Shown here: in pieces, positions 26,109-44,480 of the stretch
Numbering within the stretch: position 1 is the first letter of the stretch
Layout: each line of letters opens with the position of its first letter
NCBI GenBank assembly: GCA_040380025.1
Contig: JBEIJY010000001.1
Location: forward strand, 62,245 to 126,244
From: Bdellovibrionales bacterium
GTDB lineage: Bacteria; Bdellovibrionota; UBA1018; CAIMNF01
DNA length: 64,000 nt
Reading direction: 5' to 3'
The notes under the pieces: model-generated
What the model saw: only the letters and a program-made list of their open reading frames with translations
Database searches by the model: none
Told to the model about the DNA's origin: nothing
Program-made: the position numbers and the translations under genes

Positions 26109-26904
26109 CCAGACGATCCGGTTTTCGAGGATGGCGGTGCTCGTTCTGGAGTTTTTCGTCACGGCCTCGGTCGAACATCTCATGCTCGGACTCAGCCGGA
26201 GCGGTCGCGAACAGCTCCCGCGCAAAAAAGCGCTCCGAATCGGCCGCTACTCGAAGCGCGCTCTTGCCATTCTCGGAGTTCGCGTCGACTACGACCGGAA
26301 CACCCGCCCCTTTCCGGGCGGAGGCATGATGGTCTGCAATCATGTTTCGTACCTCGATATTCTGGTGCTCTCTTCGCAGATTCCGGCGCTTTACATCACC
26401 TCAGTCGAGACCGGATCGGCCGGCTGGATCGGGGCCTTGTGCCGGCTTGCCGGATGCCTTTTTGTCGAACGACGAAAAGTGACCGCGCTCAAGAAAGAAG
26501 TCTCCGAGATCGACTCGGCTCTGAAAAACGGGGTGCCGGTGGTCTTGTTCCCCGAGGCGACTTCATCGGATGGCCGGGATGTGCTGCCCTTCCGATCTTC
26601 TCTTTATGAGTGCGCTCTGCAAGCCCGGGCGCCGATTCACTCCTTTTGCATTCACTACACTCCCGAAGACAACGGAGTTCCCTATTACGGCGAGATGACG
26701 ATCCTGCCGCATCTGTTCGCCATTTGCGACGGACGCTCGAGAACGGCGCATCTCGAATTCCTTGACACGATCGAGCCCTCCGATACCCTTGAACGGAAGG
26801 CGGCCGCGCGAACCACCCGCTTTCAGATCCGGCAGGCATATGTTTCGAGAATGGGAAGAGCTCCAGAAGATCAAGTCCGGCCTGAGTCCGCACTGCAGGC
26901 GTGA
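26086..26904 (+). CDS. PlsC/OlsA-like acyltransferase
   Basis: CNHVSYLD (NHxxxxD), FVER, FPEATSSDG; directly after the OlsB-like gene. Confidence 0.88.
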   Translation: MRNSIRFDQTIRFSRMAVLVLEFFVTASVEHLMLGLSRSGREQLPRKKALRIGRYSKRALAILGVRVDYDRNTRPFPGGGMMVCNHVSYLDILVLSSQIPALYITSVETGSAGWIGALCRLAGCLFVERRKVTALKKEVSEIDSALKNGVPVVLFPEATSSDGRDVLPFRSSLYECALQARAPIHSFCIHYTPEDNGVPYYGEMTILPHLFAICDGRSRTAHLEFLDTIEPSDTLERKAAARTTRFQIRQAYVSRMGRAPEDQVRPESALQA

Positions 26905-27847
26905 AACCCTGACCGTCCTGAATCATCGGGAGCAAGCCTTCCCGGTAGAAGCCTTTGTTTTCGGGAATCCCTCGCCCACCGTGCCGGTGCTCGGAATCAC
27001 GGGCGGAATTCACGGGCTCGAGCGGATCGGCACCTGGGTCGCGCTTTCCTTCTTGCAGTATCTGGACTCGAGGATTCCGTGGGATCCGAGCCTCGAGTTC
27101 CAGCTCGATCGGATGCGAGTCTTCATCGTGCCGCTCGTGAATCCGGTCGGCATGGAGCGCTTCACCCGTTGCAACGGGAACGGCGTGGACCTCATGCGGA
27201 ATGCTCCGGTCGAGGCGGACCACGCATCGCCGCTGGTCGGGGGCCAGCGCTTCTCGCGTGCGCTCCCTTGGTATCGCGGGAATCCTGAACAGACTTTTGA
27301 AGGCATGGAGCCCGAGGCGCGAGCGCTTCTTCGATTTTGCGAGCATCAACTCGAACGCGCGCCCCGCTCGATCCTTCTCGATTTGCACTCGGGATTCGGA
27401 CTTCAGGATCAGCTCTGGTACCCGTATGCGAAATCGAAAGAGCCGTTTCCGGACCTGAAAGAAGTCCTGGAGCTGAAGGCGCTCCTCGATCGGGTTCTGC
27501 CCCATCACATTTACCGCTTCGAGCCGCAGAGCAAGCACTACACGACCCACGGCGATCTTTGGGATTATCTATACGACTCGCGAAGAAGAGCATCTCCGGA
27601 GGCGGGAACCTTGATTCCGATCACCTTGGAAATGGGATCATGGAATTGGGTGAAGAAAAATCCGGTACAACTTTTGAGTTATCTCGGGCCGTACAATCCG
27701 ATCAAGCCCCACCGACTGAAACGGACCCTGCGACGGCATCTGCCCTTGCTCGACTTCTTGATGCGCGTTCTTACCCGTCATCCTCCGCACCATCCGCACC
27801 ACCCACCGCACATGGCCCCTGATTCGCAACCCCGGCAACTCCCGTGA
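26840..27847 (+). CDS. M14-like zinc carboxypeptidase
   Basis: GGIHGLE, PLVNPVG, RCNGNGVDLMRN, DLHSG, TLEMG. Confidence 0.85.
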   Translation: MFREWEELQKIKSGLSPHCRRETLTVLNHREQAFPVEAFVFGNPSPTVPVLGITGGIHGLERIGTWVALSFLQYLDSRIPWDPSLEFQLDRMRVFIVPLVNPVGMERFTRCNGNGVDLMRNAPVEADHASPLVGGQRFSRALPWYRGNPEQTFEGMEPEARALLRFCEHQLERAPRSILLDLHSGFGLQDQLWYPYAKSKEPFPDLKEVLELKALLDRVLPHHIYRFEPQSKHYTTHGDLWDYLYDSRRRASPEAGTLIPITLEMGSWNWVKKNPVQLLSYLGPYNPIKPHRLKRTLRRHLPLLDFLMRVLTRHPPHHPHHPPHMAPDSQPRQLP

Positions 27848-28429: not shown

Positions 28430-29860
28430 ATGATCATGACACCGACTTTTTCTCTGACTTTTTTTCTGCGCGGAACCGTTTCGTTTTTCGTGGCATTCGC
28501 CGCATTCACCGGCACCATCGCTTTCAGCACCATGATTGCTTCTGGCACGGCGGTCGCGTCTCCGGAGGGCTCCGGATTCCGGCCGAAGCCGTTCGTGTTT
28601 CGCGACGGACAAGCGGTATTCGCCGACTTTACCGAGGCCCGCTACGAGATCACCTACGACCTGAACCGCTCGATCGCACGGGCCAAAGCGCGAATCGCAT
28701 TCGAGCTTGGGGAAGAGGGCTACCCGGTCTTTGATTCCGTCACCGCCCCGGATTCGATTGTGCTCGACGGAACCCCGGTCCAAGCGATCGAGACCCGCAC
28801 CCCCTCGAACGAGACCACCCTGCGGGTCATTGCAAAAAAGGCGAGTCCGGGCGCGCACCGGCTCGAAATCGACCTGCCTCTTGTGAGCCTCGTGAAGTTC
28901 GGGCAGGACGGGGTCCGGAGCGCCTTCTGGACCTCCGACCTCGACGAGCGTAACTTTCTGGAGCGTTACCTGCCCTCGAATCTTGAATATGACCAGGTCA
29001 AAATGAACTTTGTTGTCCGGTTTGCGGGACTCAGGCAAGAGCAGTTGATTTACACGAACGGGCAGGTCCAGCGCATTGATGCCGGCACATACTCCATCGA
29101 CTTTCCCGCACACTTCACTTCCTCGAGCATCTTCTTTCATACGACCCCGAAGGGCTCGACGCTCGAGCGCTCCTTCCAGATTCGCTCGATCGATGGGCGG
29201 GTGCTGCCGGTCATGATCTACTCGGCCTATTCGGCCTTGGGGTCCCCGCTCGATGGTCTGCAAAACCGGGTCACGAAGGTGATTGCCGAGCTCGAAGCGG
29301 CTTACGGCCCCTTTCCGCATCCTTCCGTTCTGGTTCTGAACGCCGGCATGGGCGGCATGGAATACTGCGGAGCCACGATGACCGATGTGAGCTCGGTCGG
29401 GCATGAGCTGTTCCATTCGTACTTTGCTCGCGGGGTAATGCCCGCAAACGGCAATGCGGGATGGATTGATGAGGCCCTCGCTTCTTGGCGCGACAACGGC
29501 TACCCGAGTTCTTCTTCGTTCTCGGGCGGGTCTTCGATGTCGTCCCACCCCTACTACACGCGAATCACCGATCGCGCGGCCTACAGCTTCGGCGCGCGCT
29601 TCATGAGCTACCTCGACTGGAAAACCCGCGACAAAGGCGGACTGAAGCCGTTCTTGAAGTTCATGGTTCAAACCCAAACCTTCCGACCATTTCTGATCGA
29701 GGAATTCATCGCAGAAATGAGCCGTTTCTACGGTGTTGGTTTCGACGGGGACTTCCAGCGCCACACCTTCAGCACCGGACGCTCGCTCCAGGAAATGGCA
29801 CGCGACGAAGAGGCCCCGCACCCGAAGATGAGCCTCGAAGAGCTCGAACGGCTCCTTTAG
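28430..29860 (+). CDS. Secreted M1/gluzincin metallopeptidase
   Basis: GGMEY, HELFH...WIDEALA; hydrophobic N-terminus. Confidence 0.85.
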   Translation: MIMTPTFSLTFFLRGTVSFFVAFAAFTGTIAFSTMIASGTAVASPEGSGFRPKPFVFRDGQAVFADFTEARYEITYDLNRSIARAKARIAFELGEEGYPVFDSVTAPDSIVLDGTPVQAIETRTPSNETTLRVIAKKASPGAHRLEIDLPLVSLVKFGQDGVRSAFWTSDLDERNFLERYLPSNLEYDQVKMNFVVRFAGLRQEQLIYTNGQVQRIDAGTYSIDFPAHFTSSSIFFHTTPKGSTLERSFQIRSIDGRVLPVMIYSAYSALGSPLDGLQNRVTKVIAELEAAYGPFPHPSVLVLNAGMGGMEYCGATMTDVSSVGHELFHSYFARGVMPANGNAGWIDEALASWRDNGYPSSSSFSGGSSMSSHPYYTRITDRAAYSFGARFMSYLDWKTRDKGGLKPFLKFMVQTQTFRPFLIEEFIAEMSRFYGVGFDGDFQRHTFSTGRSLQEMARDEEAPHPKMSLEELERLL

Positions 29861-31794
29861 TTCGAGTCTGCGACCGCGGGAAAGTACTCGAGCTTTTCGC
29901 CGATGGCATGCCCGGCGGGGATCGGAACGCCGAGCTCGTCAATGCGAAACACACTCACCGGAAGATTCAAGGTTCTTCTGAGCTTCTCCATCGTTTCGGG
30001 TACGAAGGGGTGCAGAAAAATCATGAGGTTCTTCAGGACATAAAAGCTCGTGAACAAGGCATCCCGTCTTGCATCCTCGGGAAAGCGATCATCATGCGGC
30101 TTGAACTGGGTGAACAAACTGTTGATCTGGCGGGCGTAGTTCTCGATCAAGTTCAAAAGCGTCCCATACTCAGCGCGCTCCATCGAGTAGAGGTACTTCT
30201 TCACGAGCTTCGCCGTCTCGATCTCGACCTTCTCGATCAGCTTCCCTTCGGGCACCTGCCCGCCGAATTTCGAATGACAGGCCGATACGGGTTTTTCGAA
30301 GGCCGCATTCATGGGTCCGGCAAGGAATCGATTCCGCTCCTCGAGGGTTGAGAAATCAAAATTCGAGGACTTCTCGGGCAAACTCAGCATGGCAAGAAAA
30401 TACCGAATCTGATCGGGAGAATACCCCTTGTCGTCGATGAGCTCGTCGGCCGAATAAAAATTGCCCGTGGACTTGCTCATTTTCTCGCCGCCGACCATGA
30501 GGTGAAAGCAGCTGAACACATCGGTGAGCTGGAACTCCCCTTCGATCGGAAGCCGGGTCAGGTCCTTCTGACTGCCGATCCACATCGCGCCCTGCATGAG
30601 CACATAAAAATATACATTGTCCTGCCCGAGGAACTGCGCGATGCGTGCATTCGGGTTCTTCCAGAAATCGGCATATTCGGCAGGATTCCGCCCCTTCGCC
30701 TTCAGGGCGACCTTCGAGAACGAGATCGGCGCAATGAGCGAATCCGGCCACACGTACAGGGTCTTGCCCTTCATCTCGGGGTCCGCATCCTCGGGCATGG
30801 GAATTCCCCAGGGAACATCGCGGCTGATCGAGCGATGGGCCCACGAATCGAGGAACTGGGAGGGGATCCCGCAGGATTCGAGAAAAACCCGTCCAGCCTC
30901 GAGGTCGGCCTTGGTGGCGAAGGTGACTGCGATTTTCTTGCCAGGCGCGTAGCGGCTCTTGTGCGCGGGAAGCTCGGCTTTCCGCTCTTTGTAGGCTGGC
31001 TCATGGACATTATCGAAGATGAGCGCCGGCATGACCGTTCCGTGCACCTCGTTGTAAACGCCCGCCCGCCACTTCTTCGCCTTGCCTTCGATCCAGATCC
31101 GCAAGGGCTCGGACACCTTCCAGAGATCAAGCCACCAGTGCACGGTCTCGCGAAGCTCGGGAACCCCGTCACTCACCGCCGATCGCGGATTTTGAAGCTC
31201 GGCCGGAAGATGGGCCGTTCCGCATTTTTCGCATTCGTCGCTGTAGGCGTTGTCATTGCCGCATTTCGGGTTCGGACAGGTCCCGCGCACCAGACGGTCT
31301 TGCAAGAACCTTCCGATCTTCGGATCGTACCACTGCCGGCTCGTGCGTTTTTCGAGCATGCCGTTTTGGTGGAGCTTTCTTAAAAACTCCTGCGAGAGCT
31401 CCTTGTGGACCGGAAAGCACTCGGGGCTCGAGGTGCCGGTATATTTTTCGATGCTGATCGAATAGCGGTTCAGGGTTTTTTCTTGCAGCGCATGGATGCC
31501 GTCGATGAACTCGCGCACAGGCTTCCCCGCTTGGATCGCGGCAAGCTCGGAGGTCGAGCCATGGTCGTCGGTCCCGCACACGAACAGCACGTTTTCTTCG
31601 CCGATCAGCATGCGCATGTACCGCGCGTAAATGTCGGGCGGAACCAGGGCTCCCGCAAGATGCCCGAGATGAAGCGGCCCATTCGCATAGGGCATCCCCC
31701 CCGTCACCACCATGCGTGCGGGACGGAACGTTTGGCGCTTGATCCACTCAATGTCGTTCGGATTGACGGGGGCTCGTTCAGGCTGTGTGCTCAT
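29857..31794 (-). CDS. metG: Methionine--tRNA ligase
   Basis: PYANGPLHLGH, GTDDHG, Zn-knuckle cysteines, SISRDVPWG, YVWPD, KMSKS. Confidence 0.96.
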   Translation of the reverse strand: MSTQPERAPVNPNDIEWIKRQTFRPARMVVTGGMPYANGPLHLGHLAGALVPPDIYARYMRMLIGEENVLFVCGTDDHGSTSELAAIQAGKPVREFIDGIHALQEKTLNRYSISIEKYTGTSSPECFPVHKELSQEFLRKLHQNGMLEKRTSRQWYDPKIGRFLQDRLVRGTCPNPKCGNDNAYSDECEKCGTAHLPAELQNPRSAVSDGVPELRETVHWWLDLWKVSEPLRIWIEGKAKKWRAGVYNEVHGTVMPALIFDNVHEPAYKERKAELPAHKSRYAPGKKIAVTFATKADLEAGRVFLESCGIPSQFLDSWAHRSISRDVPWGIPMPEDADPEMKGKTLYVWPDSLIAPISFSKVALKAKGRNPAEYADFWKNPNARIAQFLGQDNVYFYVLMQGAMWIGSQKDLTRLPIEGEFQLTDVFSCFHLMVGGEKMSKSTGNFYSADELIDDKGYSPDQIRYFLAMLSLPEKSSNFDFSTLEERNRFLAGPMNAAFEKPVSACHSKFGGQVPEGKLIEKVEIETAKLVKKYLYSMERAEYGTLLNLIENYARQINSLFTQFKPHDDRFPEDARRDALFTSFYVLKNLMIFLHPFVPETMEKLRRTLNLPVSVFRIDELGVPIPAGHAIGEKLEYFPAVADSN

Positions 31795-31972: not shown

Positions 31973-34603
31973 ATGCGCAAGCATTTTGTTGTGTTGGGTT
32001 TGGTCGTTTCTTTTTTCGTTTCATTCCAGGCGGAATCGGCTCCGCCTGAATTCAAAATCTACGAGTACATCACTCAGCTGGTCTACCCCGAGGGCAGGGT
32101 CGATCTTCGCATCGAGATGCGAATCAGCACGGGCCGCGAGGATTTCGCGGACGAGTGCACGCTGTCGATCAAGAATAGTGCTTCGAACGAGTGGCTTCCG
32201 ATCCACGACGAGAAGCTGATCCGGTTCTCGAAGGTCACCTACACGCGCGATCTCTCTCCCGGGGTGAAAGTCCGCGAATGGCTCATCGCGAGCCCCGCGG
32301 ACGGAAACCCGAAAAACGTGCGGAATGATCTCGGAATCGCGTTCCAGGATTCCGATCTCCGGCAGACCCAGCTTTATCGCCAGTCGCTGAAGTCCCGCAT
32401 CGAAGATGAGTTCTCGGCCATCGCAAAAGGCGCAACGGCCCTTCCCGAGTCACCGCGGGCGACGGCGAAGGCTCCGGTCAAGACGAAGAACAGCATCCTT
32501 TTTTACGAAGGCGATCGCGAGTTCGCACTGACCTTCGAGAAAAACGACGCGGTTCTGTCTTCGTCGGACGGCAAGTCTGTCCGCTTTGCCAAAGAGGGCG
32601 TCTCGCTGAACTCCCTGCACCACATCGAAGATGGCATTTTGTATCTGACCGGCACCGCCCGGATTTTCGACCTGCGGATGTTCGATGCCGAGGTTTCGTT
32701 CATCGGAAACACCACACTCACGAATTCGGTGCAACGGGCCGATGGCGGCATGGCCGAACCCGAAACGGAATTCAACCGTTTGTATCCGGACCTCGTGAAG
32801 AAGGAACGCGAACTGATCGAGAAGAAGCTTGCGGCTCCCATGACCGAGGAGGCGAGCGAGACCGTGCTCCGGATTGCGCGCTCCCTTCGATTGAACAAGA
32901 GCGTGAAGCTTTTGGGCCCTGCCGGAAGCGGCAAGACCTCCGAGATGAAGGCCCTCGCGCGCCTGATCGCGGCCGGGAAAATCCCCTCGATTCCGCGGAC
33001 GGCGCAGATCCGCGTGATCTCGTTGAACTCCCTTGCCTCGGGCACGAAGTACGTGGGCGAAATCGAGCAAAAAATCGCCGTGATTCTGGAATACGCGAGC
33101 ACTGCCCGGCCGATCCTCCTGATCGACGAGTTCCATGTCGCTTCGGGGGTCGGCGTGAGCCAGGGGAACCCGAACAACATCGCGCAGGCCCTGAAGCCGT
33201 ATCTCGAGGACGGCTCGCTCCGCATGGTCGGGATCTCGACGAATCAGGAGTGGGACAATGCGTTTGCGAACGACGCAGCCTTCGACCAGCGTTTTGAGGA
33301 AGTCACCCATGCCGAACCGAAGGGCGAAGAACTCCGCCAGAAGGTGCGGAACTCGTTTGTGCTCCGGGGCCTCCCCGTTCCGGGCCCTGATGCCATCGAG
33401 CGCGCGATTGTGCTTTCGGATCGCTTTGCGATCAGCGGCGCACAACCCAGAAAAGCCGTGAACTTGCTCATCAAAGCGACCGGCATCATGGACGAGATGG
33501 GACAAGTGGGCGCGCCCGCGAATGTTCAGTCGGTCGAGAGTGCCGCCGTCGAGAGCTACCAGATCGATCCGACCGCGTTCGACCGCGCGAAAATCCAGGA
33601 GCGACTCGCGAACATGCGCCAGGTGCTCGAAAGCCAGATCGTGGGCCAGCGCGAAGCGATCGAAAAGATGAGCCAGGTGTGGTTCCGGAAGCTCACCGGC
33701 GTGGGCTCGAGCCAGACCGCGAATGCGATTCTGTTCTTCGGCCCCCCCGGCACCGGAAAAACCCTGACCGCACGCCTCTCGGCGCAAGCCGGAGGCTTCA
33801 AATCGATGGTGATCGAGATGAACAAGTACGCGAATGGCGATGTCGAGGCATTCCGCTACGAGGTTTTCCGGGCCCTTCGCGGAAGCCCGAATACGGTCAT
33901 CATTCTGGACGAGATCGAAAAGGCCCATCCGAAGGTGCAGAATGCGACTCTGGCGATGATGCAGCCCGGGCAGTTCACCGTGAACTTCGAAGACCAAGGG
34001 GGACGAAAGGTCTTCGAAGAGGTGAACAGCTCGAATGCGATCTTCGTGCTGACGACGAATGCAGGACAATCGCTCTTCACCCGCGAGGCGCCGCGCGCCC
34101 AGCTCGGATACCGGCCCGTTCCGATTCCGACCGAGCTCCCGGGGGGTGCCCAGGCCACATCGGGCGAGATCACTGCAACGCTTGTTCGCGACGGGATCTC
34201 GGAGCCCCTGCTCTCGCGGATCGAGGCCGTGGTCGGAATGGCGCGGCCCAGTGCCGGAGAGTTCCGGACGGCGCTTGCACGCGAGATTCAGGCGACGCTT
34301 GCGCGCGAGAGCGAGAAAGTCGGAGTGACGTTCCGCCTGAGCAACCAGGAAGCCCTGATCGAAAAACTCATGACGAGTTATCAGCCGAACGCGTCTGATT
34401 ATCGAGATGTGGGCGCACTCTTGCGCGAGAACCTTGACCCCCTGATCGCACAGGCGATCATCGAACCCGGGATCGAGACGGCACGGGTGATCCGGATCGA
34501 CTGGTCCCCGCTCATCAATGTGAAGGACCTTCCGAGCGCAAAACCGTGTGACTTCTTGCTTCGCAAAATCAACCGCCCGCTCGGGGAGCTCGGGCGCCAA
34601 TGA
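31973..34603 (+). CDS. Signal-peptide-bearing ClpA/B-like double AAA+ protein
   Basis: MRKHFVVLGLVVSFFVSFQAESA after SD GGAGG; D1 GPAGSGKT, GTKYVGEIE, LIDEFH; D2 IVGQREA, GPPGTGKT, ILDEIEKAHP, LTTNAG. Confidence 0.85.
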   Translation: MRKHFVVLGLVVSFFVSFQAESAPPEFKIYEYITQLVYPEGRVDLRIEMRISTGREDFADECTLSIKNSASNEWLPIHDEKLIRFSKVTYTRDLSPGVKVREWLIASPADGNPKNVRNDLGIAFQDSDLRQTQLYRQSLKSRIEDEFSAIAKGATALPESPRATAKAPVKTKNSILFYEGDREFALTFEKNDAVLSSSDGKSVRFAKEGVSLNSLHHIEDGILYLTGTARIFDLRMFDAEVSFIGNTTLTNSVQRADGGMAEPETEFNRLYPDLVKKERELIEKKLAAPMTEEASETVLRIARSLRLNKSVKLLGPAGSGKTSEMKALARLIAAGKIPSIPRTAQIRVISLNSLASGTKYVGEIEQKIAVILEYASTARPILLIDEFHVASGVGVSQGNPNNIAQALKPYLEDGSLRMVGISTNQEWDNAFANDAAFDQRFEEVTHAEPKGEELRQKVRNSFVLRGLPVPGPDAIERAIVLSDRFAISGAQPRKAVNLLIKATGIMDEMGQVGAPANVQSVESAAVESYQIDPTAFDRAKIQERLANMRQVLESQIVGQREAIEKMSQVWFRKLTGVGSSQTANAILFFGPPGTGKTLTARLSAQAGGFKSMVIEMNKYANGDVEAFRYEVFRALRGSPNTVIILDEIEKAHPKVQNATLAMMQPGQFTVNFEDQGGRKVFEEVNSSNAIFVLTTNAGQSLFTREAPRAQLGYRPVPIPTELPGGAQATSGEITATLVRDGISEPLLSRIEAVVGMARPSAGEFRTALAREIQATLARESEKVGVTFRLSNQEALIEKLMTSYQPNASDYRDVGALLRENLDPLIAQAIIEPGIETARVIRIDWSPLINVKDLPSAKPCDFLLRKINRPLGELGRQ

Positions 34604-34620
34604 ATCAATCGGGGGGAATC

Positions 34621-35673
34621 ATGATGAATCGAATGTCTGTTCGCACCGCAGTGGCCGTCCTGATCGGCGCTCTGGTTTTATCGCAAGGTGCGCTCGCACA
34701 AACGCCCGAGGAACCAACGGGCACGGATCGTCTGGCTCTTGCGATCGAGAGCATGAAGGAAGAAACGATCGGCCAGGACTATGCGATCGAGAAGCTGGCG
34801 GGTTCGCTCTCGGAGGAACGCTCGGTCACCCTCCTTGTGGGCCCCGAGGGAACCGGAAAAACCACGCTCGCCCGGAACGCGACCCTTGCACTTGGACTGA
34901 ATGCGGTGGAGTTCGATCTCGCGAAGGCGAATTCGAGCTGGACGGAGGTGCTGGCCGCGATCGGACTCGGGGTCACGAAAGAGGGCACGGACACGGTGAT
35001 TCTGAGCGGAATCGAGGCCCTGTCTCCCCGTGAGCAGGTTCAGCTTGCGCTCATTCTTCAAAAACGGAAGTTCGTGATCCAACTGCCTGCTGCGAAAGCG
35101 AAAACCCCGAAACCGACGATCGTGGACCTGTCGGCGACGCGGTTTGTGCTGATCACCCACGAGGGCGAGAATCTGTTTCGCACTCCGGTGGGATTCCGCA
35201 CGTCGTGGATCCACTACCCGGACACAGATGCGTATGTGCGGGAGATCTCGAATGAGCGGATCAAGCTTGCGCTCTCGAATGTTACTTTGGTCGAGCCGCT
35301 CGTCGATGCGGCGACGACGATGATCCCGGTACGAAGGCTCAGCGCGGAGGAATACAAGTTCGCAATCGCTGAAACTCTGGATCGCATCACGATGGCGCTC
35401 GAGGAAGAGCTGAAAAAACCGGTCATGATCGAGCGAAAAGAAGCGCTGATCGAGAAGCTCTTCGAGCGGACCCATTTGGCGAACCGCTCGACTTTTCATG
35501 ATCTGAACGAATCGATCGCGGAACTCCTGCCCGAAGAACTGGACCCGGGTGCGATTTCGCCCCGGATCCGCCGCCTGAAGTCGATTGTCCTCTCGTGGTC
35601 GGACGAGACGCTTCAGATCTCGGTCTCGCGCTCCTGTTCTGACCTTTTGAAGGGCGAAAAGAAAGACGACTAG
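34621..35673 (+). CDS. Signal-peptide-bearing single AAA+ (Clp D2-like) protein with degenerate Walker B
   Basis: Signal peptide ending ALA-Q; TIGQDYAI, GPEGTGKTT, VILSGIEAL; alternative start at 34600. Confidence 0.75.
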   Translation: MMNRMSVRTAVAVLIGALVLSQGALAQTPEEPTGTDRLALAIESMKEETIGQDYAIEKLAGSLSEERSVTLLVGPEGTGKTTLARNATLALGLNAVEFDLAKANSSWTEVLAAIGLGVTKEGTDTVILSGIEALSPREQVQLALILQKRKFVIQLPAAKAKTPKPTIVDLSATRFVLITHEGENLFRTPVGFRTSWIHYPDTDAYVREISNERIKLALSNVTLVEPLVDAATTMIPVRRLSAEEYKFAIAETLDRITMALEEELKKPVMIERKEALIEKLFERTHLANRSTFHDLNESIAELLPEELDPGAISPRIRRLKSIVLSWSDETLQISVSRSCSDLLKGEKKDD

Positions 35674-35684
35674 GCGAAACGGGT

Positions 35685-36656
35685 TTAAAACTCGCCTTTT
35701 TCGAAGATCCAGCTCCAGATCAACTCCTGGTACTCGTCGTTGACCCCGGCCACATCGAAATCGGGGTCATTCTCTTCGATCGCCTTGATCATGAGGTCGG
35801 CGAACGCCTTGCGCTCTTCGAGGCCGCCCAAATGCCGGCTGAAGACCATCTTCACCGCCCGCATGATGCTTCCCGTGTCCGGACCGACCTCGCCCATGTA
35901 CTTGCGGGTGAAGATCGCAAGCTCGGCCATGCGGTCCACGGCGCGGATGCGGTCGCCCCGAAGCCAAAGGTCGATCGCGTCCTTGCATACCGTCCTGACG
36001 GTCGCGACGGCGTTCACGAGGGCCGTGCGTGCAGCAAGCTGGGTCGGCGTGAACTCCCCCATCATCCGGGCGTAAATCTCGTCGAGCTTGAAGTTCTCGG
36101 GGGCGTCGTTCTTCCAGGTCTTTCCTTCGCGGAGCCGGAATGCGGCGGAGGTCGAGATCGATGAAAGCCGGTCCCAGAAGGGGGCGCCGAACTTCAGGAT
36201 TCCGATCATCGTGAGCGGCACCGTGAGCTCGGTGATCCACCCCCAGCCCGAGTCGGCCGGAATCGAGCCCTTCAGCGCGTGGTTCAAGTACGCCGAACCC
36301 GCCATGGCCGACAAGATGAGCCCGTAGCCGCGAACCAGGGTGAAGGTTCGATTCACTGCTTGCCGGCCTTGCAGGACCCGCCCCACCTCGGTGCGCACCA
36401 CGGCCTCGATCTCGGCCCGTTCACAGCCTTCGGGTCGCAGGCACTGATTCAGCACTTTGTTCGAGATGTTTCTGCGCAGGATGCGGATCATGAGGCGATC
36501 GAGCCCGTCCTCGGCCCGGTTCAGCTCGTTCAGAATCTGCTCGGACGCAACAGCCTTCACCTCGGCCCTGGTCAGCAAAAGCCCGCACTCGGATGCCCGA
36601 GCGGAGAACGAGAGCAAAAGAAACAGCAAGACCCCGCTTCGTACCCGATTTCCCAT
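35685..36656 (-). CDS. Secreted or membrane hypothetical protein
   Basis: Signal peptide ending ARA-SECGLLL; central hydrophobic hairpin; SD GGAGG. Confidence 0.75.
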   Translation of the reverse strand: MGNRVRSGVLLFLLLSFSARASECGLLLTRAEVKAVASEQILNELNRAEDGLDRLMIRILRRNISNKVLNQCLRPEGCERAEIEAVVRTEVGRVLQGRQAVNRTFTLVRGYGLILSAMAGSAYLNHALKGSIPADSGWGWITELTVPLTMIGILKFGAPFWDRLSSISTSAAFRLREGKTWKNDAPENFKLDEIYARMMGEFTPTQLAARTALVNAVATVRTVCKDAIDLWLRGDRIRAVDRMAELAIFTRKYMGEVGPDTGSIMRAVKMVFSRHLGGLEERKAFADLMIKAIEENDPDFDVAGVNDEYQELIWSWIFEKGEF

Positions 36657-36750: not shown

Positions 36751-37686
36751 CTATTGATTTACCGGGCCATATTTGCCAGATTTCAGAAGATTTCGGTAAA
36801 CATCCCTTTGAGACTCGCTCATCCTGAGTCTCATGGGATCCAAGGTGGAATACTTGCTCGAACTCATCAGACGCCCCCCTTCGAAAGTATCAACTGCCTC
36901 GGTGATATTATCGGCGAAATATTCCATTGTTTGCATTTTCCAATTATTCTGATTCAGCTCTCGAAACAATAGAATCACGGATAACGGCTTCTTCTCCAGC
37001 CGATTCCTGATGAAAAGCAGATAGTCCGAAAGAATGGACTCCGTCATGACTTCACAAGATTTCGCGTTTTGATCTTTATAAATACTCGAGAACAACCCAT
37101 GGTCCTCAGCGCAGTCAAAGCGACTGTGGACACCGAACAAACGCGATTGAATCCCGTCAATGAACTCCGAGGACACCTTTTCGAGAGGATCCTCGATCCA
37201 AACCCGGAAGGAGGCTGCAGGCGGTATGAAGATCGTCTCCGGATTCCGTTTTGCGATCGAGTAGGAGCTACTCTCCGCATGCCCCGAGGATCGATCAAGG
37301 ACGCTGTATCCCATCATGAAATTGAAAAAATTCGGATGATCCCGATGATTCACATATTGAACCGTGGAGTTGAAACTACTCCTCCATGTTCTCGAGATCT
37401 CGACTCGCGGATCATTTTCCTTCACGAATACATCGAGCTTTACCCCCTCAAAAACTGCAGAAATCGAGGCCATATTGACTTCAATGACAGCAGAAGTCTT
37501 GTTCCTCATCTCGAGGATCCCACCCGAGAGAGGAACTGGCGTAAATGAAACATCCAATCGAGAATCAGCTTCCCCGGAGCTCCTCCGGACACTGTAATCC
37601 AGATAAACATATCGATTCGGCGAAATCGCACACGCAGAAACCATAAACATCAGTATTCCGCCCAAGATAAAATGATTTTTGATCAT
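36751..37686 (-). CDS. Putative lipoprotein, lower GC than the backbone
   Basis: MIKNHFILGGILMFMVSAC lipobox; AT-richer codons. Confidence 0.7.
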   Translation of the reverse strand: MIKNHFILGGILMFMVSACAISPNRYVYLDYSVRRSSGEADSRLDVSFTPVPLSGGILEMRNKTSAVIEVNMASISAVFEGVKLDVFVKENDPRVEISRTWRSSFNSTVQYVNHRDHPNFFNFMMGYSVLDRSSGHAESSSYSIAKRNPETIFIPPAASFRVWIEDPLEKVSSEFIDGIQSRLFGVHSRFDCAEDHGLFSSIYKDQNAKSCEVMTESILSDYLLFIRNRLEKKPLSVILLFRELNQNNWKMQTMEYFADNITEAVDTFEGGRLMSSSKYSTLDPMRLRMSESQRDVYRNLLKSGKYGPVNQ

Positions 37687-37812
37687 GAGTTGTATTTTAC
37701 AAAACCAGCGGCAACCGGTCAAATAATTCCCGGCAAAGCCGGGGAGGACGACTTCTCCCGGGCCACTTCTTCGCCCGTTTCAATTTGGCTAAGTCGAGCG
37801 AAGTGAGCGAAA

Positions 37813-38040
37813 GAGGCGTATGAATAATACGCCGGACTGAGCGAATCTGATGCGAGACGACCCCAAATTGGATTGGGTGAAGAAGTGGTTGGGGCGCTAG
37901 GATTCATCTCGGCCGTCCCGGCCTCGACCATGCGGACGGCAGTCGCTACCGCTCCCGCCGTGCAAAAATGCCTCCGCTCCTGGCGGAGCTTCCTTGGCAT
38001 TAACGCCCCAACCACTTCTCTCCTGTATCTCCCGGAATCC
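37813..38040. repeat. 228 bp direct repeat, copy 1 (contains tRNA-Gln 3' end in both orientations)
   Basis: Matches 39507..39734 with 5 substitutions counted by eye. Confidence 0.95.
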
Positions 38041-38203: not shown

Positions 38204-38230
38204 TGTTAAAAAATGGTGCATAGTGGAGAA

Positions 38231-39412
38231 ATGGCTCACACGAGACCCCGCCATCTGAAACCCGTTTTCGAGAAATCCCTTCGTTGGTCCCCTTCGGTGT
38301 CATTGCTGGGAATGAGGCAGGTGGGCAAAACCACCCTGATGAAGGAATTGGTGGATCATTACCAAACCTTCGATGACGACACCCTTGTGTTCAAGGCGAA
38401 TTCCGGGAATTGGTCGTTCGTGGATGCTCCCAAAGGAACTCTTGGTCTGGATGAGTGCCAAAAAGCTCCCTCTGTGTTCGATCGGGTGAAATTGAACATC
38501 GACCAAAGGAAGCGCCCCGGGCAATATGTGCTGAGCGGCTCCGTTCGCTTCCTCTCCAAAAAACAGATTCGCGAATCCCTCTCCGGAAGAACCGACATTC
38601 TCGAACTGTTTCCGATGGGCATTTCGGAATGCCATTCGGGGGAACCGAGCCGGTTCCTGCCCATTGCGCTGAAGCTCGAGGGGCAAGCATTGCTCAATAA
38701 GATCGAGAGCAACGCCCGATACTCGCGGAAACAAGTTGAAGACGGCTTCATTTCGGGCGGATTGCCCGGGATCTGCTTCTTGAGGGATGCCGCAGTCCGA
38801 AATGCGAAATTCAGGATCCAAATCGAGACGCTTTTGAGTCGAGACATCGAAATGATCGCCCCGACCGATGTCGGATATGCAAAATTGAAGGCTCTCGCCA
38901 CCGGGGTTTTGAAGGAGTGCGGATCTCCTGTCAATCATTCCCGCCTCGCGAAGAACTCGGGCCTTTCGGCCCCTACTGTACGGAGACTCCTCGGAGCACT
39001 CGAGGGTCTGTTTTTGATTCGAAGACACGGTCGCTGTTTTTTCGGGACCGATACGGGACTCACCCATTTTCTGGTCAAGGAGTGGGAACCGGACTCCAGG
39101 CCATTCCTGTTGAGCACTGTTTTCATGGAGTTGACCCGTCAGCTTTCTTACAGATATCCCAATCTTCACGAGTTCGATGAATTCCGGAGTCGAGGAGGCA
39201 TCGATGTTCCATTCTTGATACGAGTCCAAGGCCATGCTCCGCTCGCGATTGTTCCGGACATTACGGAAGGCGCCTCGAACAAGTCGCTGATTAGCCTCAC
39301 GTGGTTCAAGAAAAAATTCAAAGACGCGAAGACCATCGTTCTTCACCGGGGAAATCGGGCATATCAAGCCTCGAGCGGTCATCTCTGTTTGCCATACGAG
39401 ATGATCTACTAG
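38231..39412 (+). CDS. AAA_14 ATPase with DUF4143 domain (COG1373-like)
   Basis: GMRQVGKTT, LDECQK, LSGS, ESLSGR, GGLPG, winged-HTH-like segment, C-terminal nuclease-like fold with an atypical motif. Confidence 0.88.
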   Translation: MAHTRPRHLKPVFEKSLRWSPSVSLLGMRQVGKTTLMKELVDHYQTFDDDTLVFKANSGNWSFVDAPKGTLGLDECQKAPSVFDRVKLNIDQRKRPGQYVLSGSVRFLSKKQIRESLSGRTDILELFPMGISECHSGEPSRFLPIALKLEGQALLNKIESNARYSRKQVEDGFISGGLPGICFLRDAAVRNAKFRIQIETLLSRDIEMIAPTDVGYAKLKALATGVLKECGSPVNHSRLAKNSGLSAPTVRRLLGALEGLFLIRRHGRCFFGTDTGLTHFLVKEWEPDSRPFLLSTVFMELTRQLSYRYPNLHEFDEFRSRGGIDVPFLIRVQGHAPLAIVPDITEGASNKSLISLTWFKKKFKDAKTIVLHRGNRAYQASSGHLCLPYEMIY

Positions 39413-39506
39413 GTCGGGACCGAGATCTAGCGAGAAAGGGTTGCCGAATTCTTCAAGACTCTGCCCATTCTTCCGGATCGTATTCGGAATGACAACGGAT
39501 CCGAGG

Positions 39507-39734
39507 GAGGCGTATGAACAATACGCCGGACTGAGCGAATCTGATGCGAGACGACGCCAAATTGGATTGGGTGAAGAAGTGGTTGGGGCGCTAGGATTCA
39601 TCTCGGCCGTCCCGGCCCCGACCCTGCGGGCGGCAGTCGCTACCGCTCCCGCCGTGCAAAAATGCCTCCGCTCCTGGCGGAGCTTCCTTGGCATTAACGC
39701 CCCAACCACTTCTCTCCTGTATCTCCCGGAATCC
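39507..39734. repeat. 228 bp direct repeat, copy 2
   Basis: Matches 37813..38040. Confidence 0.95.

Positions 39735-41882: not shown

Positions 41883-44480
<2,598 letters not shown>

Follow-up and report, generated by a model that had tools for sequence, protein, structure and literature searches.

In bacteria, Clp and other AAA+ unfoldases, together with the ATP-dependent proteases, are cytoplasmic, and the periplasm and cell exterior are treated as free of ATP. Torsin is an AAA+ ATPase with a signal peptide that is paired with a degenerate AAA+-like protein, LAP1 or LULL1, which donates an arginine finger; it forms a single ring and has no aromatic pore loops. In the Plasmodium translocon PTEX, the pore partners of HSP101 are EXP2 and PTEX150. 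HSP101 itself is a Clp/Hsp100 protein and the force-generating ATPase of PTEX, located beyond the plasma membrane of the parasite according to two reports (PMC8693896, PMC6550532). Here we describe a locus of Bdellovibrionales bacterium (assembly GCA_040380025.1, contig JBEIJY010000001.1, positions 62,245 to 126,244; this stretch of 64,000 nucleotides is hereafter the window) in which two adjacent genes encode a ClpA-like double ATPase (A) and a smaller, degenerate paralogue (B), both with predicted Sec-type signal peptides. A literature search returned no description of a signal-peptide-bearing Clp or AAA+ protein in bacteria or in Bdellovibrio; most subscription journals lay outside its coverage, and the absence is unproven.

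A ClpA-like double ATPase with a predicted signal peptide

Gene A starts with an ATG located 6 nt past a Shine-Dalgarno (SD) sequence, GGGAGGA, and 178 nt from the start of the divergent metG gene (29857-31794). The first 22 residues of its product, i.e., MRKH, FVVLGLVVSFFVSF and QAES followed by Ala, show the n-, h- and c-regions of a Sec signal peptide. The initial annotation had read a Sec-type signal peptide on A and a signal peptide on B, and had asked whether the true starts lie further downstream. The conserved N-domain of A begins at about residue 27 and the next in-frame Met is residue 49, thus a later start would cut into this domain, and the hydrophobic segment belongs to the protein.

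Pfam detected only AAA-type domains in A, from residue ~300 onwards. Residues 23-290 had no Pfam match, with no Clp_N (PF02861) at E ≤ 0.1, and the Pfam Torsin family matched neither A nor B. The top NCBIfam model for A was ClpA (1.4e-51), at 175.6 bits, far under its equivalog cut-off of 993, whereas the bona fide ClpA of the same genome (G000:C7) scored 1030.6 bits. The top match in the PDB was E. coli ClpA (6uqe, 3.2e-39, residues 300-705), and the HSP101 structures 6e10 and 6e11 were also among the matches.

To place the modules, six A-family proteins and two B proteins were aligned with the genome's own ClpA and with the ClpB of the window. The pore loop of the first ATPase module (D1), SGTKYVGE, resembles those of ClpA and ClpB. 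In the second module (D2), a gap of 12 residues lies opposite the GAPPGYVG(F/Y) segment of ClpA and ClpB in all six A-family rows and both B rows, and D2 of A retains all catalytic residues. The ~130-column insertion that holds the M-domain of ClpB is not present in A. This agrees with the architecture proposed for A in the initial annotation, i.e., an unrecognised N-domain (now ~270 aa), an intact D1, a D2 without GYVG, and no M-domain. Beyond D2, a C-terminal extension carries a conserved Cys859.

An AlphaFold2 model of the N-domain, computed from an alignment of eight rows, was all-beta with two subdomains (pLDDT 71.1, pTM 0.47). Foldseek returned nothing from the PDB at E ≤ 1e-3, and the best VIA-align matches were propeller-blade-like beta pieces with a top Z of 6.7, which is within the stated noise of the tool, with subdomain 1 barely covered. 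Given matches within noise and a barely tested subdomain 1, we refer to the modelled domain as unrecognised and make no claim of a new fold.

Taken by its sequence, A is a ClpA descendant in which Clp_N has been swapped for a signal peptide and a beta domain of ~270 aa. It shares with ClpA the tandem AAA+ modules with complete Walker A and B motifs, sensor-1, arginine finger and sensor-2, the KYxG-type pore loop of D1, the lack of an M-domain, and an xGF-type tripeptide at the ClpP-docking position. Unlike ClpA, which has Clp_N and the GYVG pore loop of D2, it carries the signal peptide and the unrecognised beta domain, has lost the D2 loop by deletion, and ends in the extension with the conserved Cys. 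A departs from ClpA on four counts: it has neither Clp_N nor the pore loop of D2, it scores under the equivalog cut-off, and by prediction it is located outside the cytoplasm. The normal clpB that had been noticed nearby was found again at 41883-44480 (-), 6.2 kb past the end of gene B, and encodes 865 aa with the domains Clp_N, AAA, AAA_lid_9, AAA_2 and ClpB_D2-small. ClpB/Hsp104 and A are both class I double AAA+ proteins (24% identity), but only ClpB has the M-domain coiled coil and Clp_N, and only A has the xGF loop and the signal peptide.

Conservation of the ATPase sites and of the docking loop

Residue conservation was counted in the 125 members of at least 700 aa among 142 family proteins collected (Table 1). 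The ATPase sites of both modules are strongly conserved, indicating that ATP hydrolysis matters wherever the A-family proteins act, and both rings of A are predicted to be under selection for ATP turnover. The aromatic residue of the D1 pore loop is kept in 89/125 and G362 of the same loop in 123/125.

The LGY tripeptide of A, with IGF, VGF or IGI in its relatives, lies by sequence position opposite AVGF in the ClpP-docking loop of the genome's own ClpA; ClpB has no equivalent. At the docking-loop G712, the glycine is kept in 76/125, with alignment gaps in 32. B has a tripeptide aligned with the same ClpA loop. The retention in both A and B of what looks like a ClpA-type ClpP-docking loop gives a concrete form to the idea that these proteins act on Clp machinery.

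Table 1 Predicted features of genes A and B in the window, and conservation of ATPase residues among 125 A-family members.
Feature	Position	Strand	Remark
Gene A (P0001)	31973..34603	+	876-aa ClpA-derived double AAA+ ATPase with predicted signal peptide; open reading frame (ORF) and SD
A signal peptide, residues 1-22	31973..32038	+	MRKHFVVLGLVVSFFVSFQAES, cleavage before A; inspection and heuristic
A N-domain, residues 23-290	32039..32842	+	all-beta in the model, two subdomains, unrecognised
A D1 AAA+ module, residues ~291-530	32843..33562	+	
A D1 Walker A GPAGSGKT	32915-32938	+	
A D1 pore loop GTKYVGE, residues 357-363	33041-33061	+	
A D1 Walker B DE (DEFH)	33125-33130	+	
A D2 AAA+ module and C-terminal extension, residues ~531-876	33563..34603	+	
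A D2 Walker A GPPGTGKT	33740-33763	+	
A D2 Walker B DE (LDEIEK)	33908-33913	+	
A D2 LGY tripeptide	34103-34111	+	position of the ClpP loop of ClpA
Gene B (P0002)	34621..35673	+	350-aa degenerate D2-type AAA+ paralogue with predicted signal peptide; ORF and SD
B signal peptide, residues 1-26	34621..34698	+	ends in SQGALA, cleavage before QT
B Walker A GPEGTGKT	34840..34863	+	
B VGF tripeptide	35188..35196	+	inside invariant PVGFRT; aligned with AVGF of own ClpA
D1 K321 (Walker A)			kept in 122/125
D1 D385 (Walker B)			kept in 119/125
D1 E386 (Walker B)			kept in 118/125
D1 T423 (sensor-1)			kept in 119/125
D1 R440 (arginine finger)			kept in 119/125
D2 K596 (Walker A)			kept in 125/125
D2 D646 (Walker B)			kept in 121/125
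D2 E647 (Walker B)			kept in 120/125
D2 N696 (sensor-1)			kept in 121/125
D2 R749 (arginine finger)			kept in 117/125
D2 R811 (sensor-2)			kept in 109/125

Signal peptides across the family

Signal peptides were called by eye and with a home-made heuristic. The heuristic required an uncharged run starting no more than 35 residues in, a Kyte-Doolittle mean of 2.0 or more over 8 residues, an n-region with a net basic charge, and small residues at -3 and -1. A first, looser version was discarded, having flagged 105 of 110 ClpB controls; the strict version flagged none of the 110, among which there were only 11 distinct N-termini.

Nine close A homologues from a word-indexed search (P0003-P0011, 68-27% identity) and the protein of genome G057 all showed the n/h/c pattern with small -3 and -1 residues (10/10), although the signal-peptide residues themselves diverge among these proteins; P0004 has 10 extra N-terminal residues from an upstream start call. 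For B, all three complete N-termini of the family showed the pattern, and the fourth protein is a fragment. Among the best 150 representatives of an exhaustive profile search, 106 were positive by the strict heuristic, with 41/50, 31/50 and 34/50 in the three successive fifties by rank. The 44 negatives include 12 fragments, several gene calls whose start falls within what looks like a signal peptide, and some canonical Clp proteins. With the set restricted to relatives of 700 aa or more with an initial Met, 94 of 126 were positive. Sec-type N-termini are kept in nearly all relatives in spite of the divergence, and the observation of a signal-peptide-bearing Clp-type pair was confirmed as a prediction from sequence.

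The type of signal was also considered. Across 125 members, the median length of the apolar run was 13 residues, compared with 25 in the membrane anchor of the genome's SppA, and the run so is signal-peptide-like rather than anchor-like; from the basic n-regions, the N-terminus is predicted to stay inside and most of the protein to lie outside. Regular-expression searches found a lipobox in 1/142 and a twin-arginine motif in 8/142, several of the latter being clearly spurious.

A different account of these N-termini is that A is not exported. The N-terminal segment would be a membrane tether or non-functional, and cytoplasmic rings would dock on the cell's own ClpP through xGF, making A a membrane-proximal ClpA variant with a new recognition domain. 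This would solve the problem of the ATP supply and would explain why a docking tripeptide aligned with that of the genome's own ClpA is retained; the genome has a normal ClpP, beside clpX, and 32 of the 126 full-length-looking relatives fail the heuristic. We consider it quite unlikely, given that a short apolar run between a basic n-region and small -3/-1 residues is the signature of a cleaved Sec signal with an N-in/C-out topology, that A has no second hydrophobic segment to return the rings inside, and that a bona fide ClpA is already encoded elsewhere in the genome. Two unrelated ATP-dependent enzymes of the same genome, described below, also have such an N-terminal signal.

Gene B, a degenerate D2 paralogue

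The ATG of gene B lies 17 nt past the stop of gene A and is preceded by an SD sequence (GGGGGA); an alternative ATG overlaps the stop of A as ATGA. Genes A and B almost certainly share one transcript. A promoter and terminator scan of the A-B locus yielded nothing exceeding shuffled sequence. The N-terminus of B reads MMNRMSVR, TAVAVLIGALVL and SQGALA followed by Gln.

B aligned with residues 532-864 of A at 27% identity (BLASTP, 2e-18) over the full length of mature B, an alignment that takes in the C-terminal extension with the conserved Cys, and the best BLAST matches of B in the collected set were the D2 halves of P0005, P0003 and P0001, i.e., of A and its closest relatives. The deletion of the D2 pore loop is common to A and B. 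The claim that B has a Walker A motif without the acidic pair of Walker B held up: SG takes the place of DE (DH in three relatives). Sensor-1 Asn is changed to His or Asp in the B family and sensor-2 Arg to His, and the arginine-finger column (R749 of A) is occupied by Ala, Ser or Lys, never Arg. The columns P189-T194 (PVGFRT) are invariant in the B family. An AlphaFold2 model of B (pLDDT 71.8, pTM 0.65) matched ClpX, D2 of ClpA and ClpC, and NBD2 of ClpB (E ~1e-11, TM ~0.42-0.45) and set PVGFRT beside a low-confidence, flexible loop (pLDDT < 50 at residues 196-200). B is thus predicted to be a catalytically dead D2 module in which the docking-loop motif is kept.

A pairing of the torsin/LAP1 type had been suggested for A and B. 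The likeness is loose: in both cases an active AAA+ protein is paired with an inactive one, and both A and B have predicted signal peptides. However, A is double-ringed and keeps a pore loop in D1, unlike torsin, and B has lost the arginine-finger position, unlike LAP1, so activation by a partner-donated finger does not fit.

The B family is small, with three other members in 5.8 billion proteins. B was not found in the genomes G173, G057, G344 and G039, where the matches were only D2 of A homologues, or in GTDB representatives, where three matches were spurious P-loop hits. To relate B to the A family, a D2 tree was built by a quick method from 45 rows (3 B, 11 subfamily members, 22 hand-picked from the ~130 members of the broader set, and 9 canonical Clp proteins). 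Canonical Clp proteins formed one clade (support 99) and B one long-branched clade (100); this tree gave no settled place of B within the A family. B is a rare, lineage-specific duplicate of D2.

Distribution and genomic context of the A family

The exhaustive profile search covered 1.84 billion representatives, with the best 150 scoring 262-1413 bits, and recovered at least 140 clusters of A relatives. The ClpB of the window scored 222.6 bits on the same profile, and canonical Clp proteins appeared only at the bottom of the best-150 list. Where names were given, the relatives were called 'AAA family ATPase' or 'ClpA' and came from metagenome-assembled genomes of Bdellovibrionales or Bdellovibrionia, and the one relative labelled Xanthomonadaceae belongs to genome G057, which was placed in the order of the window. 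In a scan of 401 sampled Bdellovibrionota genomes with the family profile (E ≤ 1e-85, at least ~290 bits), the A family was found in 23, i.e., 16 in the order of the window (its own genome counted) and 7 elsewhere, and it was absent from one taxonomic family with 100 sampled genomes. A Bdellovibrionota lineage is in line with these names and counts. The N-domain of A alone found 5 of the 401 genomes, and scans of genome and metagenome contigs with protein A alone found nothing. A is therefore not an orphan; its family is large and so far undescribed in Bdellovibrio-like bacteria.

Eight long relatives were inspected with Pfam. No N-terminal domain was detected in the six true family members; P0198 proved to be an ankyrin-Clp protein, and P0254 belongs to a family of AAA+/M41 proteins (see below). 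The anti-phage defence models of PADLOC gave only partial, generic AAA matches, the best being DolB (8e-14, over 162/375 positions).

The genomic context of the family was profiled by all-against-all BLAST of the ORFs within ~8 kb on either side of 19 loci. No recurring neighbour was detected, other than one small ORF found far off in three loci. B accompanies A in only one of the 19 loci, and A is a stand-alone gene in the other 18. The operon of two described initially is very probable as a transcription unit and is not the unit of the system; the A-B pair is a local elaboration of a stand-alone gene. In one locus of the same genus (L008, G173:C4, 1680-9203), the A homologue P0010 is divergent beside a prkA-yeaH-spoVR operon. 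Genome G311 has two members on the same strand 4.5 kb apart (L040, G311:C5, 773-3430 and 7929-10595) and a third copy on G311:C3, showing that the family can be multi-copy.

The context bears on a further possibility, namely that A is a translocon motor comparable to HSP101 of PTEX. Seated on a pore of the prey or bdelloplast membrane, the exported hexamer would thread predator hydrolases into the prey cytoplasm or prey proteins out of it, with xGF docking on the pore complex and not on ClpP. HSP101 works beyond the plasma membrane of the parasite, at the host-parasite interface, according to the two reports (PMC8693896, PMC6550532), and A, likewise predicted to be a Clp/Hsp100-type ATPase outside its own cytoplasm, has an intact D1 pore loop, a new N-domain, and HSP101 structures among its matches. 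HSP101 differs in being eukaryotic and ClpB-like: it has an M-domain, and its N-domain is of the Clp_N type. The 19 loci yielded no pore-like or otherwise conserved neighbour, D2 of A is without a pore loop, and a partner is suggested by none of the present results; we regard such a role as very unlikely.

Other ATP-dependent enzymes with signal-peptide-like starts

The genome of the window was screened for proteins combining a signal-peptide-like start with Walker A and Walker B motifs. The screen returned A, two further proteins described below, and two false positives, Lon and MutS2. The first of the two (G000:C40, locus L057:2582-6814, -) has 1410 aa, in which three AAA+ modules are followed at the C-terminus by an FtsH-type Peptidase_M41 domain that carries HEAGH; its start is preceded by an SD sequence and its predicted signal peptide ends in SRALA, before QL. 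It shares 25% identity over 1200 residues with P0254, the start of which is also signal-peptide-like. Relatives of its C-terminal 499 residues were found in 39 of the 401 Bdellovibrionota genomes, and 20 of 21 AAA+/M41 proteins examined had a signal-peptide-like start early in the open frame, in a permissive start search with a baseline of 39% of the genome's ORFs of at least 200 aa. The AAA+/M41 proteins are a candidate family of exported ATP-dependent proteases.

The second (G000:C38:17279-18835, locus L082, P0278) is a 519-aa protein with PIN_4 and PhoH domains, of the PhoH2 type of ATP-dependent RNA helicase/RNase. It begins with MKLIRLSACLLVLSQLPQIALA, a clear signal-peptide-like segment with putative cleavage before NV, and has no in-frame Met ahead of the PIN domain. 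The occurrence of three unrelated ATP-dependent enzymes with Sec-type N-termini in one 2.35-Mb genome speaks against an accident of gene calling.

A possible role of A and B in predation

We favour, tentatively and at somewhat under an even chance, the explanation of A and B as exported unfoldases that hydrolyse ATP and are directed at prey, where ATP can be had. In its favour are the kept signal peptides and ATPase residues, the docking loop of the ClpA type, the adjacency of genes A and B, the Bdellovibrionota lineage, the other ATP-dependent enzymes of the genome with signal-peptide-like starts, and the ATP transport system that B. bacteriovorus 109J reportedly has (Ruby and McCabe, 1986). 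The initial annotation had proposed effectors delivered into prey or host cytoplasm as unfoldases or dominant-negative Clp subunits; such delivery and such activities are here likewise hypothetical. In the scheme that follows we infer export, site of action, substrate, partner and the interaction between A and B, and all functions are predicted. Both proteins would cross the inner membrane via the Sec pathway. A would form a hexamer that hydrolyses ATP in both rings and grips polypeptides by the pore loops of D1, and the new beta-rich domain in place of Clp_N would presumably pick the targets or the docking site. With no ATP pool in the periplasm of the producer, A would most likely work while prey is being attacked, inside the prey cell or at its surface and on prey ATP. 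There it would unfold or disassemble prey proteins for degradation, with a peptidase partner reached via the retained xGF docking loop or with co-secreted proteases. B, co-translated and co-exported, may modulate A or compete for the same docking partner.

In a more specific form, which we consider quite improbable, A and B would hijack the ClpP of the prey. Their xGF loops would dock on it, A would feed it prey proteins at the expense of prey ATP, and B would behave like an acyldepsipeptide antibiotic, opening ClpP or displacing both ClpX and ClpA of the prey.

Several points weigh against a prey-directed role. Export is a prediction by inspection and a home-made heuristic, and the 32 full-length-looking relatives that fail the heuristic may include, besides truncated gene calls, proteins truly without a signal peptide. 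The predatory lifestyle of this uncultured lineage is a supposition. None of the 19 loci showed a secretion-system gene or any other neighbour conserved with the family, leaving no evident route across the outer membrane or into prey. In ClpAP, D2 is the main translocating ring, and with the D2 pore loop lost, threading into a peptidase is possibly not the mechanism. A retained ClpP-docking loop is explained most simply if the protein meets the cytoplasmic ClpP of its own cell. A search of the genome with PF00574 for an exported ClpP-like peptidase found only the cytoplasmic clpP-clpX locus and SppA, a ClpP-fold peptidase that faces the periplasm.

Some of these points would suit a motor that is exported but acts in the producer's own envelope, extracting proteins or controlling their quality in the periplasm or at the outer membrane. 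Its ATP would come from prey, from the environment or from an unspecified supply, or nucleotide binding would serve chiefly for assembly. The signal-peptide evidence is the same as for the prey-directed unfoldase, no neighbouring secretion system is at hand to carry the proteins past the periplasm, and SppA is in principle a possible docking partner. On the other side, the catalytic Glu, sensor and arginine-finger residues are kept in 109-125 of 125 members, which indicates real turnover and not mere binding, and a patchy family (23/401 genomes) is odd for a housekeeping role. The periplasm is not known to have a source of ATP, which also counts against an envelope motor. We consider this explanation unlikely.

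Other genes of the window

Two 323-aa proteins of an unrecognised family, with no match in Pfam or PADLOC, are encoded convergently with gene B at 35685-36656 (-) and 36751-37722 (-). The former has a signal-peptide-like N-terminus and the latter a lipoprotein-like one (ending in MFMVSAC). Further on, a direct repeat of 233 nt (97% identical, 37808-38040 and 39502-39734) flanks an ATPase gene of the AAA_14/HTH/DUF4143 type (38213-39412); the G+C content of the repeat-flanked stretch is 0.53, compared with ~0.58, and it resembles an inserted cassette or a duplicated attachment site. On the other side of the locus, a 476-aa protein (28430-29860, +) with a hydrophobic N-terminus and HELFH, an HExxH motif, had no match in Pfam or PADLOC and could be a metallopeptidase that is exported and belongs to a family not yet recognised. 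A gene for an M14 carboxypeptidase lies just upstream (26762-27847).

Implications

The surprise of this locus is a conserved family of ClpA-derived ATPases, catalytically intact by prediction, that bear export signals, such machines having been thought purely intracellular. If the signal is not used for export, the family would still be a form of ClpA not described before, in which the N-domain is new and the D2 ring has no pore loop. If proteins of the A type truly leave the cytoplasm, then either bacteria run ATP-driven protein remodelling outside it or predators use the ATP of their prey, and either outcome, if true, would begin a new chapter both for AAA+ biology and for the understanding of how predatory bacteria work. 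Should A and B indeed hijack the ClpP of the prey, they would imply, together with the AAA+/M41 and PIN-PhoH proteins, that Bdellovibrionota routinely export ATP-dependent degradation machines that are powered by the energy of the victim.

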